DNA from: Daejeonella sp.
GTDB lineage: Bacteria > Bacteroidota > Bacteroidia > Sphingobacteriales > Sphingobacteriaceae
DNA length: 64,000 nt
Assembly (NCBI RefSeq): GCF_036405355.1
Contig: NZ_DASWXT010000068.1
Coordinates: forward strand, 15,303 to 79,302
Reading direction: 5' to 3'
The notes under the pieces are model-generated. The model was not told the origin of the DNA and made no database searches. It was given only the letters and a program-made list of their open reading frames with translations. Position 1 is the first letter of the stretch, and each line of letters opens with the position of its first letter. This document shows, one piece after another, positions 34,689-63,208 of this stretch. A program made the position numbers and the translations under genes.

Positions 34689-34799
34689 TAAATATAGTAG
34701 ATTTCATTTTGAATTCTAAATAGAGCGATAGATAGTGTCGGTAAGAAATAAAATATGAAACCAGAGCGATGCGGAATTGCTATCAAATATCTTTTCACA

Positions 34800-34821
34800 T
34801 TCCCTATTCCCTATTTCCCTA
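34800..34821 (-). repeat. Short heptamer array starting at a stop codon
   Basis: Minus strand TAGGGAAA-TAGGGAA-TAGGGAA; first TAG is the stop of the 34819 gene. Confidence 0.8.
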
Positions 34822-36192
34822 CTTACCATTTCTAATCAGACCGTTCTTCTCTGAAAGTTTAATTACTTCATTTAAGATCCTTGTTTCGATACCTACCTGC
34901 CACTTGGAAGGCAGACCATAAACGGTGTGAGATTCACCTTCATAAGAACCTTCTTTTAGCACCAGTGATGAAGGAACATAGGCCATAACATCGTTTGAAT
35001 ATCCATATACAAATGCATCAGCGCCCAGCATTTGTTTAATTTTTATAGAATATTCAATCAGAAGTTCACCTCCAAGACTTACAATGGGCTGATCTCCTAT
35101 CGACCATACCTGAACAGGATATGGGTAAGATGTTATTAATTTTTCTCCTGATCTGATCTTACCCCTCATACGTTCGGCCCATCTCTTTTGGTAGGGAACT
35201 GTAGTAGAGCTTATGAATTTTGTATATTCTGCCTCAGTTGGAGGAGTTGCCAGCGGAAGGTCCAATTCTGAGTAACTTGTAATCAATCCTGAAGGCAATT
35301 TCCTCATATCTTCTTCCAGTACCCGCTCAACTGCTGCAGCCAGTTCCTTTCCATATTGCTTAGCCAAAGGGACAGTATGTCTTGGTAAAGGATTCTGATC
35401 AGCACCTGCACTTTGAAAAAACATTGCAGTGGCGCCGGGATAAGCTTTTTCTAGCTCAATCTGTGTAAATCCGGGATAATCACCCGACCAATCATAACCA
35501 CTTAAGACTGTTGGATGACAGGCATATCCAAAAGCAATTGCTTTAATATCTCCTTTTGCATTCAAAACCTTGATTACCGGTACTGCATAATCATTGGGGC
35601 CCTGCAGTTCAGTAAGCTGGGTAAGTAAATTTGCTACATTGTTCCGGCGGTTCACCTGAAATCGAACAACCCCATTCTGAGAATAAAGCCCTGCTGGTTC
35701 AAGATTCTTTAGAGCCTCTCCTACCATAGTTACTACCTGATCCTCCAGTATTTTGGTGTATTGTTTAATACTTTCTATTTGCTGATTATCAAGGACGTAA
35801 ATATCCATGAGCGCATCCCCAATTACAGGCCCTGAGTGCGTATGGGAACTGTTCAACAAAATCTGAGCACGATCTAATCCATATTTTGATTTTATCCGGT
35901 CTCTGATCCGGTCAGATACATCTTTAGGGAAACCCAAAAGATCAGAACTGATCATTACAGCCTTATTTCCTTTTGAATCTTCGAGAGCCAGAGCCTTTGC
36001 CCATATCGGATGCAAAGTGCCTTCTGATGAATGGGTACGGGAAGCAAAACCGGCCATAGGCATTGCCATCTTAGGGGTAATATCGGCTTTGCCAACACCA
36101 GCTTTCCATTCAAGGCCAGGAGTATGCTGCGCCTGAACCGGATTTATGAAGGCCACGATGATTAAAAGCAGATTAAAGATTGAAATTTTCAT
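34819..36192 (-). CDS. Secreted neutral/alkaline ceramidase-family amidase
   Basis: AGVGKADITP, LSSSHTHSGP-like SSHTHSGP, YACHPT, GELLIEY, GYSND...Y.P...GSYE. Confidence 0.8.
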   Translation of the reverse strand: MKISIFNLLLIIVAFINPVQAQHTPGLEWKAGVGKADITPKMAMPMAGFASRTHSSEGTLHPIWAKALALEDSKGNKAVMISSDLLGFPKDVSDRIRDRIKSKYGLDRAQILLNSSHTHSGPVIGDALMDIYVLDNQQIESIKQYTKILEDQVVTMVGEALKNLEPAGLYSQNGVVRFQVNRRNNVANLLTQLTELQGPNDYAVPVIKVLNAKGDIKAIAFGYACHPTVLSGYDWSGDYPGFTQIELEKAYPGATAMFFQSAGADQNPLPRHTVPLAKQYGKELAAAVERVLEEDMRKLPSGLITSYSELDLPLATPPTEAEYTKFISSTTVPYQKRWAERMRGKIRSGEKLITSYPYPVQVWSIGDQPIVSLGGELLIEYSIKIKQMLGADAFVYGYSNDVMAYVPSSLVLKEGSYEGESHTVYGLPSKWQVGIETRILNEVIKLSEKNGLIRNGK

Positions 36193-50282: not shown

Positions 50283-50290
50283 GTTTAGAT

Positions 50291-50311
50291 GTCAGTTGTC
50301 AGTTGTCTGTT
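50291..50311. repeat. Heptamer repeat x3 upstream of RidA start
   Basis: GTCAGTT GTCAGTT GTCTGTT. Confidence 0.7.
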
Positions 50312-50417
50312 GCCAGAAATATCCTGCTATATTTAAAATGAACACGTAACTTCATTATTCTTTATTCATTGTTCCAGGAAATTATTTTCAAGAAGCAGGT
50401 ACTAGTCTTAATGACCA

Positions 50418-50495
50418 TTCCCTATTTCCTATTTCCTATTTCCTATTTCCTATTTCCTATTCCCTATTCCCTATTTCCTATTCCCTATTCCCCTA
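50418..50495 (-). repeat. Heptamer SSR (TAGGRAA) x10 beginning at the HiPIP stop codon
   Basis: Ten TT(T/C)CCTA units at 50418-50487 plus an 8-nt unit containing the TAG stop. Confidence 0.95.
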
Positions 50496-58073: not shown

Positions 58074-58129
58074 TGAGGTGGGAGGTATTAGGCATTAGGT
58101 GTTAGGTATTAGGTGTTAGGTCTTAGGTA
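58074..58129 (+). repeat. Heptamer array right after the anti-sigma stop
   Basis: TGAGGTG GGAGGTA then TTAGGYN x6. Confidence 0.88.
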
Positions 58130-58316
58130 ATAGTGCCACTATTTCTTTTAAAATTGCAGATAATTACCTGAGGCTTTAGGAAGAATCTAACACGATCATT
58201 TACTCCCTTATTCTTATCACTTTTTTTATTTTTAAAGTAAATGTTTATATTTACTTAAACGAAAATCCTCCCTCCAAACTTACATTCCCCAATACAAGAT
58301 TTCTTCATATTCTGTT

Positions 58317-58493: not shown

Positions 58494-58723
58494 GGTTAAT
58501 TAAGTTTCGGAATTATTGAAAGGATAATATTTCTTAAAAGTTAAATAGCTTCAAGAGATTTCGAAGACCAGGAGAAAAACCTGATTAGCTAATTCCCACT
58601 ATATTATGATCAGGAAAACTATATGAAACTATGATTTATTGGGCAGAAATGCAAATGAATTATATTAATTCTCATTTATACTGATTCTGCATACCCCTAT
58701 TCAGAACCTAAACTTGCAACAGC

Positions 58724-58800
58724 AAAAAAAAGGGCCGAATAACTAGTATTCGACCCTACATCTACCTATGAAAAACATGCCCTTTGGGGGGCACTTATTT
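58724..58800 (-). ncRNA. Candidate small RNA
   Basis: 5' hairpin GTGCCC..GGGCAT, single-stranded GTTTTTCATAGGTAGATGTA, terminator GGGTCGAATA-CTAGT-TATTCGGCCC-T8, no minus-strand CDS feeding it; 5' end uncertain. Confidence 0.45.
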
Positions 58801-59624: not shown

Positions 59625-60407
59625 TCAATATAAAATATGTGAGGCGAGAGCAACCTGCCCTGGCGTATGTCCTGTAAAGAACTTGTAATCCCGGTTAAAA
59701 TGCGCCTGATCGTAATAAGCACTTTCATAAGCTACCTCGGTTAAAGAAAGTAAAGGATACTTTTTCAGGTGATCAAGCGATCTGATAAACCTGCAGACAC
59801 GCAGGAATTCCTTTGGCGACAAACCTACAATTTGCTGAAATTTTCTTGAAAGATGGCGTTGGCTAATGCCGGTATCGCTACTGAGCTGGCTTACATGAAT
59901 GTGTCCAGCTGAACGCCGGATCTTCTCCAAACAATGGGCTATCTGCTGATCATGTTCATTTCGTGTCAATTCCTGCAAGAGATACTTCTGTACAATAGCT
60001 GAACGTTCATTATGACTAAAGGCATCAGCCAGCTTGCTCTCTATCTCTCCCGCCATACTATTCCATAAATCAGACAACACTAAAATTCTGTCGGCTAACA
60101 AATGCATCGGTAAATTAAAAAATCTGTATGCTGCTCCGGGATAAAAACAAATGGCTATGCAACCAGCGCCTTTGCGCATCTGCACATCCGAATAACGGCT
60201 CATCCGGGAGGTTACAATGCTCCTATCATATAATTCATTTCCAATAATAGCAAGAGGTGTACTGGTGTAGTTCAGAAATAACTCAACACAAGTATCAGGT
60301 AAAACACGGATATGGTTAGTATCAGTGCCATTATCGCAGTCCATTGTGCATATCAGTTTTACGTAGGACTGCAACTCTGGAAGAACTTCAAACTGCTGAA
60401 TTAACAT
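59625..60407 (-). CDS. AraC-family transcriptional regulator
   Basis: RVLPD.CVEL N-domain; S.RHLSRKF...VGLSPK, YYDQAHF.RDYK.FTG.TP. Confidence 0.9.
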   Translation of the reverse strand: MLIQQFEVLPELQSYVKLICTMDCDNGTDTNHIRVLPDTCVELFLNYTSTPLAIIGNELYDRSIVTSRMSRYSDVQMRKGAGCIAICFYPGAAYRFFNLPMHLLADRILVLSDLWNSMAGEIESKLADAFSHNERSAIVQKYLLQELTRNEHDQQIAHCLEKIRRSAGHIHVSQLSSDTGISQRHLSRKFQQIVGLSPKEFLRVCRFIRSLDHLKKYPLLSLTEVAYESAYYDQAHFNRDYKFFTGHTPGQVALASHILY

Positions 60408-60530
60408 ATAAATAAATATAGCTTATGTCAATAAATTGCGGGCTAATTTTGATAAATAGAATCGTGCAAAGATTCTTTAGATAATCTATTGAGAAAATTT
60501 TGTTCCAGGGATGTGTAAATAAAAAAAGAA

Positions 60531-60596
60531 CCACAAACCTCCCGATAACAATCAGGAACTCTAAGCATCCCAATTACCATCGGGGTAGCAATAACC
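60531..60596 (-). pseudogene. Truncated, highly decayed tRNA-His copy (copy 3) with two palindrome insertions
   Basis: + strand CCACAAACC [TCCCGATAACAATCAGGA] ACTCTAAGCA [TCCCAATTACCATCGGGG] TAGCAATAACC aligns to the 5' half of the tRNA. Confidence 0.75.
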
Positions 60597-60597
60597 T

Positions 60598-60627
60598 AAA
60601 AAAGCCTTAGTTTTAACTAAGACCTTT
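60598..60627 (-). terminator. Hairpin/terminator after tRNA copy 2
   Basis: AAAGGTCTTAGT-TAAA-ACTAAGGCTTTT, T-run. Confidence 0.65.
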
Positions 60628-60634
60628 CTATTAA

Positions 60635-60752
60635 GGGTGGCTGATGGGGCTCGTCCCGATAGCTATCGGGACCACGACCCTTGGCACCACAAACCTCCCG
60701 ATAATTATCGCGAAATCTCACCATCCCTATAACTATCTGAAGAGCTACAGCC
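60635..60752 (-). pseudogene. Near full-length tRNA-His copy (copy 2) with three 18-bp palindrome insertions
   Basis: Collinear with the tRNA; inserts at 60654-60671, 60696-60713, 60724-60741. Confidence 0.92.
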
Positions 60753-60769: not shown

Positions 60770-60801
60770 AAAAAAAAAGCAGCTCATTTCTGAACTGCTT
60801 T
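60770..60801 (-). terminator. Terminator after tRNA-His
   Basis: AAAGCAGTTCA-GAAA-TGAGCTGCTTT-T run. Confidence 0.85.
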
Positions 60802-60809
60802 CCAAATCG

Positions 60810-60884
60810 GGTGGCTGATGGGGCTCGAACCCACGACCCTCGGCACCACAAACCAATACTCTAACCAACTGAGCTACAGCCACC
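60810..60884 (-). tRNA. tRNA-His (GTG), CCA not encoded
   Basis: G-1, acceptor GTGGCTG/CAGCCAC, D-arm GCTC..GAGT, loop TTGTGGT, T-loop TTCGAGC, C discriminator. Confidence 0.95.
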
Positions 60885-61108: not shown

Positions 61109-63208
61109 ATGGAAAAAGAAGAATTGATTGAACTTCAGGTAAGCGGTATGCATTGCAATAACTGTGCGTTATCAGTCCATAAATTACTTGAAAAAAAGGG
61201 GCTGCAGGATATCTATGTTGATTTTGCGAACGATGAGGTAAAATTCAAAACCAGTAACCCTTCAGAAACTCCACTAATTATCAAGGATATCGAAGGTTTA
61301 GGTTATAAGGTAAGTGAGGAAAGTATCCCTATTCAGGAAAAATTCTTCGAAAAAGTGGAGAACAAATTCTATTTCAGCCTCATTTTTACTATTCCCCTCT
61401 TCTCACATATGTTTCTGCCTTTTCATTGGCTTCACAACCCTTTGGTTCAGTTAGGCTTATGTATTCCGGTTTATATTTTAGGATGTATTCATTTCGGCAA
61501 AAGTGCTTTCAATTCATTAAAGAATGGAATCCCAAATATGGATGTACTGATTTTTATCGGTTCGAGTGCAGCTTTTATTTATAGTTTGTATGGGACAGTT
61601 CAGAATTTGGGTCCTGATTTTTTGTTTTATGAGACTGCAGCAACCATTATTACCCTGGTGCTATTAGGAAATGTTTTAGAAAAGAGGTCTGTAACACAAA
61701 CCACATCAGCTGTAAGAGATCTGATGAAATTTCAGGAAGCAAAGGCAAATAAACTGCTCAATGGAGAAATAATAACAATAAACTCACAGGAAGTAGTCCC
61801 GGGGGATACACTGGTCATCAATTCAGGTGATAAAATTCCTGTGGATGGGGAAATCATCTGGGGTGAAGCCTCGGTTAATGAATCGATGCTTACCGGCGAG
61901 AGTCTGCCGGTAGAGAAGTCGAAATACGACAAGGTAATCGGTGGTACTTTGATTGAGAAGGGCAGCATCCACATCCTGGTAACTAAAACCGGAAAACATA
62001 CTATTTTATCCCAGATCATTGATCTGATGAAAAAGGCACAGTCGGCAAAACCGCCAATTCAGAAGCTTGGAGATCAGGTAGCTGCGATATTTGTGCCTGT
62101 AGTAGTTGGTATTGCTGTTCTAACTTTTGTTTTGGCCTATTATTCCTTCGATCTCAGCTTTCAAAAATCTATGCTGAATGCAATTGCTGTTCTGGTTATA
62201 TCCTGCCCCTGTGCTATGGGTTTAGCCACACCTACTGCAGTGATGGTTGGATTGGGCAGGGCGGCTAAAAATGGCATTCTAATCAAGGGTGGAAATACGC
62301 TTGAGGAGATAGCGAAGTTAAAATATATGGTCTTTGATAAAACAGGGACTCTCACAACCGGAAACTTCAAAATCAAAAAGATCGAGAGTATAAAGATTTC
62401 TCAGAAGAAAGCCGAATCGATTATTTATGGTATTGAGGCTTATTCAAATCATCCCATTGCACGATCCCTGGTTTCAGAACTTAGTGCAGGGAATCCTGAA
62501 AAAATAATATTCACGAAAGTATCAGAAGAAAAGGGCCTCGGAATGAGCGGAACTGATTCAGAGGGTAATACCTATCAATTCGGATCGAGACAAATCTTAA
62601 ATCCGGAAGAAGAACAGGGAAATTTTAGCCTTTTCCTTAAAATGAATGGAAGCCTCCTTGCGAAAATTGAAATTGAGGATGAAATTAAACCGGATGCACT
62701 GAAACTGATCGGCACCCTGAAATCTATGGGTATTCAGCCGGTTTTACTGAGCGGTGATCTGAAAAAGAAATGTGAAGATCTGGCTGCTATTTTAGGTATA
62801 GAGGAGGTATATGCCGAAACTCAGCCACATCAAAAGCTTGAGATCATTGAAAGGATTAAAAAAAGAGGTAAAACGGCAATGGTGGGCGATGGAATAAATG
62901 ATGGTCCCGCCTTAACCACTTCTGACGTCGGAATTTCAATGAGTGATTCCAGTCAGATCGCGATCCAGTCTGCTGAAGTGGTCCTGTTAAAGAATGAGCT
63001 CGGAGTTATCGATCAAATGTTAAGAATCGGGAAACATACCCTCTTAACGATTAAACAAAATCTGTTCTGGGCATTTTTCTACAATGTCGTGGCGATACCC
63101 GTAGCGGCATTTGGTTTTCTTAACCCAATGGTTGGAGCCTTAACAATGGCTTTTTCTGATGTCATTGTGATCGGTAATTCTATCCGCTTAAAAACTAAAT
63201 CACTATAA
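61109..63208 (+). CDS. copA: P1B-type heavy-metal (Cu+) ATPase
   Basis: GMHCNNC HMA, TGES, CPCAMGLATP, DKTGTLT, GDGINDG, YN..AIP, M..S. Confidence 0.88.
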   Translation: MEKEELIELQVSGMHCNNCALSVHKLLEKKGLQDIYVDFANDEVKFKTSNPSETPLIIKDIEGLGYKVSEESIPIQEKFFEKVENKFYFSLIFTIPLFSHMFLPFHWLHNPLVQLGLCIPVYILGCIHFGKSAFNSLKNGIPNMDVLIFIGSSAAFIYSLYGTVQNLGPDFLFYETAATIITLVLLGNVLEKRSVTQTTSAVRDLMKFQEAKANKLLNGEIITINSQEVVPGDTLVINSGDKIPVDGEIIWGEASVNESMLTGESLPVEKSKYDKVIGGTLIEKGSIHILVTKTGKHTILSQIIDLMKKAQSAKPPIQKLGDQVAAIFVPVVVGIAVLTFVLAYYSFDLSFQKSMLNAIAVLVISCPCAMGLATPTAVMVGLGRAAKNGILIKGGNTLEEIAKLKYMVFDKTGTLTTGNFKIKKIESIKISQKKAESIIYGIEAYSNHPIARSLVSELSAGNPEKIIFTKVSEEKGLGMSGTDSEGNTYQFGSRQILNPEEEQGNFSLFLKMNGSLLAKIEIEDEIKPDALKLIGTLKSMGIQPVLLSGDLKKKCEDLAAILGIEEVYAETQPHQKLEIIERIKKRGKTAMVGDGINDGPALTTSDVGISMSDSSQIAIQSAEVVLLKNELGVIDQMLRIGKHTLLTIKQNLFWAFFYNVVAIPVAAFGFLNPMVGALTMAFSDVIVIGNSIRLKTKSL

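Follow-up and report, generated by a model that had tools for sequence, protein, structure and literature searches.

What could place an 18-nt palindrome three times within the remains of a single tRNA gene, at the cost of three bases on each occasion? The question arises from a 701-nt spacer in the window, the 64,000-nt stretch of Daejeonella sp. DNA that was analysed. Pfam identifies the gene on one side of it as a member of the AraC family (59625-60407, minus strand) and that on the other as a heavy-metal P-type ATPase (61109-63208, plus strand). One real tRNA gene resides in this spacer, a tRNA-His(GTG) at 60809-60883 on the minus strand (ARAGORN; Rfam RF00005, 59 bits), with an encoded G-1 at 60884 and a terminator-like hairpin and T-run directly 3′ of it (60774-60803, minus strand). 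A sequence-only reading of the same DNA had recognized a repeated unit, and its "copy 2" is real and corresponds to this intact tRNA-His(GTG), although the identity of the unit as a tRNA was missed. The intact gene serves here as the "empty-site" reference for two further copies, B and C, both of which lie downstream of it on the same strand.

Dead copies of tRNA-His and their palindromes

Copy B (60635-60752, minus strand) is a near full-length tRNA-His pseudogene that aligns with the intact gene from position 3 through the 3′ end and then for ~11 nt more, the first 2 nt being missing. The two sequences differ in three places, each of which is an 18-nt palindrome in place of 3 nt. On the tRNA strand, the D-loop has lost AGT, positions 26-28 have lost ATT, and positions 53-55 in the T-arm have lost GTT. 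On the plus strand these triplets read ACT, AAT, and AAC, precisely the exchanges that the sequence-only reading had given. The palindrome in the T-loop (60654-60671) is a perfect one, TCCCGATAGCTATCGGGA, and this 18-nt sequence, which encodes nothing, is the element that we designate P. Its counterparts at positions 26-28 (60696-60713, TCCCGATAATTATCGCGA) and in the D-loop (60724-60741, TCCCTATAACTATCTGAA) score 15/18 and 14/18, respectively. As DNA, the T-loop copy has a hairpin energy of -5.9 kcal/mol, and the D-loop copy has lost its hairpin (0 kcal/mol).

Behind copy B lies a terminator-like hairpin (60597-60630, minus strand) that in relatives sits after the intact tRNA-His. It is followed by copy C (60528-60596, minus strand), the 5′ half of a copy-B-like pseudogene, which ends after the anticodon. 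Decayed versions of P occupy the D-loop of copy C (60568-60585, TCCCAATTACCATCGGGG, 13/18) and its positions 26-28 (60540-60557, TCCCGATAACAATCAGGA, 15/18). The coordinates and identity counts given earlier for all five palindromes, which begin at 60654, 60696, 60724, 60540, and 60568, are right. All copies were placed by pairwise and manual alignment; MAFFT alignment of the three tRNA copies put the insertions wrongly.

Matches to P with at most three mismatches number three in the window, all at the tRNA-His locus, against a shuffle expectation of 0.02, and none of 100 window shuffles reached three. The locus is 100% identical across independent assemblies of several sequencing runs and one JGI metagenome, and thus is not an assembly artefact. 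RNA runs contain the tRNA-His part of the locus only, which has no bearing on transcription of the dead copies. Copy B is not called as a tRNA by ARAGORN or Rfam, and its predicted minimum-energy fold is not a cloverleaf but one in which the P copies pair with each other. Substitutions in the dead copies break stems without compensation. The region from 60528 to 60752 is best described as a graveyard of tRNA-His duplicates behind a working tRNA-His gene. P would have no function at this locus, its copies residing behind a terminator and decaying, and because the target of insertion is a tRNA-His pseudogene, there is no translation here.

Close homologues of the ATPase place the organism among Pedobacter/Daejeonella-like Sphingobacteriaceae, and the syntenic locus was compared in relatives whose ATPases are 97% to 80% identical to that of the window. 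All of the relatives fetched have kept the intact tRNA-His, either identical or 1 nt different. A single pseudogene with all three palindromes, to which copy C is orthologous, is present in L128, with a fourth palindrome behind it. L135 has the D-loop (P1) and T-loop (P3) palindromes and an empty middle site, GAGT-ATT-AGTTTGTGG, and L136 has the middle palindrome (P2) together with a decayed D-loop palindrome, its T-loop site being without P. The middle palindrome of L131 is shifted 4 nt in the 3′ direction, and its T-loop P is interrupted by a ~300-nt insert, ~100-400 nt downstream of tRNA-His. With inverted repeats at its ends (CCTATCGTGTGGACACAT...) and GC-rich hairpins inside, this insert resembles a MITE nested in P. 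Two pseudogene fragments are found in L129 and the first palindrome only in L132; L133/L134 and L137/L138 have tRNA-His and no pseudogene. These different subsets of insertions show sequential gain in an old, decaying tRNA-His duplicate, and bear out the earlier proposal that the levels of decay reflect different ages.

The hairpin behind the L128 pseudogene is the same as that behind the intact tRNA-His in the window (60774-60803). Relative to L128 and L129, the terminator hairpins at 60597-60630 and 60774-60803 are swapped, which implies recombination between the gene and a dead copy. The order A - terminator 2 - B - terminator 1 - C observed in the window represents a rearranged descendant of the old duplicate.

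Elsewhere in the window, a conserved element at 58722-58795 (minus strand) is common to L135 and L137, whose ATPases are 89% and 80% identical to that of the window. It reads ATG TTT TTC ATA GGT AGA TGT AGG GTC GAA TAC TAG, after which come a GC-rich hairpin and a T-run. This element, which has no Rfam match, has the appearance of a leader peptide of 11 codons combined with an attenuator or terminator.

Dispersal, footprint, and in-frame insertions of P

A genome scan using the exact arms TCCCGATANNTATCGGGA and one genome per species returned at least 120 loci. Bacteroidota account for 78 of the 80 listed record titles, both exceptions having non-consensus centres, and the taxa among the matches listed comprise Flavobacteriales, Chitinophagales, Cytophagales, Sphingobacteriales, Saprospiraceae, and environmental Bacteroidales. 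Genome, viral, and metagenome scans recovered more than 300 copies of P in unrelated contexts, with the exact 18-mer present in 46 viral contig stretches. The sites have unrelated flanks and different neighbouring genes. The sequence-only reading had proposed a dispersed insertional micro-element with further copies elsewhere, and such copies do occur in other genomes. Among the matches listed, 115 of 133 exact P sites (~86%) fall outside stop-to-stop ORFs of at least 450 nt, which make up 80% of the sequence surveyed for these 133 sites, and the free central dinucleotide of P is GC in 90 of 131 sites. Variant arms preserve the dyad (GCCC..GGGC, CCCC..GGGG, TTCC..GGAA, TACC..GGTA, and ACCC..GGGT). 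Copies cluster locally, with three in one 75-nt pseudogene and as many as seven in 8 kb, and some cap terminator-like stems (L082, L118). Searches of the window and 16 P-bearing loci against Rfam 15 gave only tRNA matches, with no family covering P, and searching the literature by the literal sequence of P and by topic found no description of it.

The surroundings of P show some regularities. In the genome-scan sites listed (L008-L127), the base preceding P is T in just 5 of 131 and the base following it is A in just 8 of 131; 37% of sites have G..T or A..C as their flank pair, compared with ~12% expected. A 62-nt unit containing P is repeated seven times in a Cytophagales MAG (L047, 2171-2560), as is a 122-nt unit, twice, in a viral contig (L164, 362-501). 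The Mu-like phage contig IMGVR_UViG_3300009870_000707 (L166/L169/L171) includes a structural module (L169) whose short intergenic spacers consist of a heptamer array, P, and an inverted array. A form recurring in phages, ATCC-P-CTATCGGGAT, corresponds to P with an extra half-P (L166/L169/L171, L144, L170). Tandem heptamer or octamer arrays in the intergenic spacers of the window itself are without P, namely ATTTCCT x10 (50417-50489), AGGTATT x7 (58083-58133), TGTCAGT x4 (50290-50316), TTCATTA x3 (50351-50374), and TTCCCTAT x4 (34799-34832); similar arrays flank P in other genomes and phages.

Four independent kinds of before-and-after comparison agree on the footprint left by P: tRNA D-loops, tandem arrays, copies of P nested in P, and orthologous empty sites. 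A metagenome scan with the pattern GCTC-N0-2-P-N0-2-GGT yielded at least 97 unique sites in many different tRNAs, and 60 of the listed sites, which have an uninterrupted tRNA on the same contig, were used for counting. The D-loop has lost 3 nt in 43 of these 60, 4 nt in 16, and 2 nt in one. Arrays of 7-8-mers regain their phase when 3 nt are added back in the five cleanest cases (L018, L027, L033, L038, L066), and other array cases give 4-6 nt lost; these counts come from a relaxed test, a strict periodicity test retaining 3 arrays only. In all five P-in-P nests (L039, L040, L090, L112, L175), removing the inner copy and restoring 3 nt makes the outer copy whole, with the limitation that the mismatched-flank null of the nested-P scan is not clean, half-P flanks being recurrent. 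Finally, the orthologous empty sites that the sequence-only reading had called for show the same 3-for-18 exchange, with the loss of ATT evident from the L135 pseudogene and that of TGA from a serine dehydratase gene.

Reconstructed insertions have no target-site duplication, and reading their junctions disclosed neither a target consensus nor microhomology. Duplication of the flanks across P is not in excess outside tRNA contexts. The comparisons show that P arrives as a fixed 18-nt unit, with the loss of 3, and sometimes 4, target bases. The frame-preserving rule claimed earlier, 18 nt for 3 nt (+15), holds in those 43 D-loops, the nests, the cleanest arrays, and the empty sites, but it is the mode and not a law, as about one quarter of D-loop events are +14. 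We also considered whether the target triplet survives as the centre of the hairpin; this fits AGT and ATT at the present locus, does not fit GTT, and fails elsewhere. To our knowledge, no transposition chemistry removes exactly 3 target bases.

One reading frame of P contains TAG, and the other two read PDSYR(D/E) and PIAIG on either strand. Because a gain of 15 nt keeps the frame and two of the three frames of P are open, insertions in tolerant protein loops persist as pentapeptides. Among the matches listed, 18 of 133 genome-scan sites place P within a long ORF. Six P-bearing ORFs have a Pfam domain match on both sides of the element, representing RNase HII (L020), EPSP synthase (L027), a response-regulator receiver domain, serine dehydratase alpha, the GlnRS anticodon-binding domain (L066), and a pyridine nucleotide-disulphide oxidoreductase (dihydrolipoamide-dehydrogenase-like). 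For serine dehydratase, a 98%-identical orthologue preserves the empty site TTTTTG-TGA-TGGCAAC corresponding to the filled TTTTTG-P-TGGCAAC, a difference of +15 nt and +5 aa, and the linker accordingly reads FC-DGNNTDK when empty and FC-PDSYR-DGNSTDK when filled. This linker has 7 residues in 53 of 115 close homologues and 12 residues in 44, the longer form starting with PDSYR in variously decayed states; one homologue carries PDSYR two residues further on, representing an independent insertion. The earlier suggestion that such palindromes add short peptides to proteins thus holds for real enzymes, in which PDSYR or PIAIG is found in frame, and does not extend to this window, where none is translated. 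Additional sequence sits beside P in some of these ORFs. L020 has a second GC hairpin, and both L027 and L066 have a heptamer array, from which it follows that array-plus-P blocks of up to ~21 residues can be accommodated in frame inside enzymes.

tRNA genes as targets and the putative mechanism

Among the matches listed, tRNA-like sequence accounts for ~5% of genome-scan P sites. The P-bearing fragment always has an intact copy of the same tRNA next to it, and P is found inside tRNA sequence in redundant copies only. For each of the 60 D-loop pairs, the intact gene lies downstream of the fragment and on the same strand, the median separation being 85 nt. Fragments of the 3′ part show the opposite order, with the intact gene upstream in 15 of 16 cases, and several of them have P or a related hairpin in the T-loop. 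This polarity of fragment and gene follows from the geometry of tandem partial duplication. The start of the 5′ fragment precedes tRNA position +1 by 0-9 nt in 51 of 62 pairs, and its end lies ~7 nt past GGT, near position 26. A set of 45 tRNAs not picked for P contained five 5′ fragments, all with a P-like or other TCC...GGA hairpin, and no element-free 5′ fragment. Such regular limits, combined with a constant hairpin, are not predicted by a simple hit on a pre-existing duplicate. The limits show no relation to promoter-box distance, which led us to reject the transcription start as their origin. A duplication that always accompanies P insertion was likewise rejected, since none is seen outside tRNA contexts.

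The positions struck within tRNAs are the D-loop, position 26, the anticodon arm, the variable loop, and the T-loop, all of which are unpaired or hairpin positions of the cloverleaf, and in several fragments the whole 17-nt anticodon arm has been swapped for a 16-19-nt P-like hairpin (L044, L231, L187, L189, L215). This choice of targets points to action on a folded single strand. P also lands on the tips of other hairpins, on P itself, and in heptamer arrays.

Two or three successive units of psi-tRNA plus P precede the intact tRNA in L213, L254, and L295. Further TCC...GGA palindromes occur at tRNA loop positions (TCCGCCAGTTGGCGGA, TCCCGCTGAGGCGGGA, TCCCGCTTTAGGCGGGA, TCCCGACTAAAAGTCGGGA, and TCCCGAGACTTCGGGA; also CCTGCCTGCCGG...), and psi-tRNA fragments with palindromes of this kind are found in L084, L262, L222, L187, L242, L256, and L062. 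Within what looks like a set of TCC...GGA palindromes, P seems to be the most frequent.

We consider it likely that tRNA-His duplicates have been hit repeatedly by P, a dispersed 18-nt micro-element moved in trans by a cut-and-join activity. The hypothetical enzyme would work on transiently single-stranded, folded nucleic acid, with DNA at replication forks or transcription bubbles as the most likely substrate. As the sequence-only reading had stated, the window holds no mobilising enzyme, there being no transposase, integrase, or HUH domain among its 45 ORFs. The 10 ORFs scanned from the P-rich Mu-like phage contig, drawn from two of its three loci, with the third (L171) left out but for one ORF, include Mu-like structural genes only and no transposase-like domain. 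One Y1_Tnp (IS200-type) gene is present in 2.1 Mb of P-bearing loci, and its ends are without P. A RAYT-like phmmer match in L018 was given no confirmation by Pfam. Because the exact loss of 3 nt without duplication matches no chemistry known to us, the enzyme behind P would probably be new. Against this reading, the perfect conservation of 18 nt across the phylum might also point to a host protein that binds P.

A more specific proposal, which we advance tentatively, is that an unknown Bacteroidota system recognises the unpaired junctions of single strands folded as a cloverleaf, cuts them, and puts a hairpin, either P or one of its TCC...GGA relatives, in place of 3 nt or a whole arm, the same event yielding the tandem tRNA quarter-fragment that spans positions 1 to ~26. 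If true, such a cut-and-join system would amount to a new chemistry, at the DNA or RNA level, directed against tRNA genes, as well as a steady supply of pentapeptide insertions in proteins.

An enzyme-free alternative we regard as rather doubtful. A nascent strand might stall at a hairpin, copy P elsewhere by template switching or short-patch gene conversion, return, and skip a few bases, with the same slippage producing the local partial duplications of tRNAs. Targets that are hairpin loops, hairpin feet, or slippage-prone heptamer arrays would be expected under this scheme, as would the local clustering of P (three per 75-nt pseudogene, up to seven per 8 kb), the exchange of whole anticodon arms for P-like hairpins of the same size, and the tandem arrangement of P-bearing tRNA fragments with the intact gene. 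Template switching should, however, leave ragged junctions and microhomology, whereas what is found are exact 18-nt units, a 3-nt loss, and unrelated contexts; the junctions as read have no microhomology or target consensus, and no excess of flank duplication across P accompanies insertions outside tRNA contexts.

Transfer through RNA appears less plausible still and is in our judgement improbable. Here the P hairpin would be joined or copied, as RNA, into abundant folded RNAs, which would then be reverse-transcribed and recombined into the gene, a route that has reportedly been proposed for cyanobacterial small dispersed repeats. It accommodates the strong over-representation of tRNAs, the most abundant folded RNAs, as targets (~5% of P sites), a left boundary of tRNA fragments that coincides with the mature 5′ end whatever the promoter distance, and the coincidence of struck positions with unpaired positions of the cloverleaf. 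Yet many targets are intergenic arrays and sites past terminators, non-palindromic centre variants are oriented without bias with respect to the tRNA sense strand (12 versus 10), no reverse transcriptase is linked to P, and the transcription start that would be expected does not match the fragment limits.

Selection of P as a useful cis element is very improbable. As the operator of a conserved dimeric regulator, as a terminator, or as an RNA-stabilising hairpin, P would in this window control the AraC-like gene or the metal ATPase gene. Its perfect dyad symmetry, the strong conservation of 14-18 nt across the phylum, its mostly intergenic location, and the terminator-like stems capped by some copies (L082, L118) would all suit such a role. 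Operators are not expected, however, to occur three times in a tRNA pseudogene, to nest in themselves, to reside in heptamer arrays, or to lie in frame within enzymes. Genes beside P differ between sites, the copies at this locus decay without compensation, and L133 and L137 share the flanking genes and lack P altogether. That copy B is a working structured RNA, in the form of a tRNA-like molecule whose arms are extended or of a tRNA interrupted by three small introns, can be given next to no credence: each P is placed where a cloverleaf arm could be extended or flanked, and archaeal tRNA genes may have several short introns, but taking P out leaves the tRNA 3 nt short each time, the acceptor stem is without its first 2 nt, the predicted fold pairs P copies in place of a cloverleaf, stem-breaking substitutions are uncompensated, neither ARAGORN nor Rfam calls a tRNA, the copy sits behind a terminator-like hairpin, and relatives have different subsets and deletions. 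Varied contexts, uncompensated decay, and the absence of a cloverleaf fold thus make the regulatory and functional-RNA readings very unlikely.

Repeated insertion of P, moved in trans, remains the reading that we favour. If mobile, P, with its 18 nt, would rank with the smallest mobile DNA units known. It accounts for a recurrent annotation puzzle in Bacteroidota, that of tRNA fragments beside tRNA genes, and for part of the heptamer-plus-hairpin intergenic DNA of Bacteroidota and phages. It also represents a traceable way for proteins to gain five-residue loops, as in the +5 linker of 44 of 115 serine dehydratase homologues, and a ready marker of recent insertion events in metagenomes.

Comparison with known palindromic and mobile repeats

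Archaeal-type tRNA introns have a bulge-helix-bulge motif at their junctions, and their precise removal restores the tRNA. Excision of P, in contrast, leaves the tRNA 3 nt short per site, and the tRNA-His concerned, in which G-1 is encoded, is of bacterial type. MITEs carry terminal inverted repeats, generate a target-site duplication of fixed length, and measure tens to hundreds of bp, whereas P has 18 nt and its target loses 3-4 nt with no duplication. Rickettsia palindromic elements are roughly 100-150 bp long, lie in frame, add tens of residues, and are confined to Rickettsia. P is like them in being palindromic and in adding a peptide through in-frame insertion; it differs in adding 5 residues, in its occurrence outside Rickettsia, in being mainly intergenic, and in targeting tRNA loops. 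The Rickettsia elements have been mentioned as palindromic repeats inserted in protein genes (PMC3733652).

REPs are defined by a GTAG or CGTC tetranucleotide at one foot of a 20-40-nt imperfect palindrome and are sometimes located inside genes (PMC3733652). P shares with REPs and REPINs the properties of being short, extragenic (115 of 133 exact sites outside long ORFs, among the matches listed), hairpin-forming, multi-copy, and non-coding. The term "REP-like" applied to it by the sequence-only reading is consequently apt in the loose sense of a short extragenic hairpin repeat, but not in the strict one, as P is a perfect 18-nt palindrome with no GTAG/CGTC tag. It occurs mainly as single copies, whereas REPINs are inverted doublets, and no flanking RAYT (Y1 HUH) gene was seen in the 45 window ORFs or in 2.1 Mb of P-bearing loci. 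The taxonomic ranges differ as well, with P present in many orders and the Bacteroidetes RAYT subclass 2.6 in ~2.5% of sampled species (PMC6006769).

Palindromic repeats also inhabit organelles. Palindromic selfish repeats have been described in Volvox mitochondrial and plastid DNA (PMC2670323), and palindromic repeats in fungal mitochondria (PMC7218506). The organelle repeats are similar to P in that they are short, multiply in non-coding DNA, and have no known enzyme, and are unlike it in their sequences and in belonging to organelle genomes. We know of no fixed 3-for-18 rule for repeats of this kind.

In its behaviour, P most closely resembles the small dispersed repeats SDR1-8 of heterocyst-forming cyanobacteria, reportedly described by Elhai et al. 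in 2008. These are said to be very short dispersed hairpins of 21-27 nt, with variants that are symmetric or compensated, and to be found within tandem heptamer arrays, self-nested, confined to one coherent taxon, and reportedly without an encoded enzyme or a known mechanism. With the SDRs as so defined, P has in common a hairpin of less than 30 nt with symmetric variants, residence in heptamer arrays, self-nesting, and restriction to one taxon; it differs from them in phylum, in its unrelated sequence, and in being shorter (18 nt versus 21-27 nt). For the SDRs, we know of no 3-nt target loss, tRNA-loop targeting with tandem fragments, in-frame pentapeptides, or presence in phages. We file P among the very small mobile palindromic repeats, with traits of its own in the 3-for-18 footprint, the targeting of tRNA loops with regular fragments, and the pentapeptides that it contributes to proteins.
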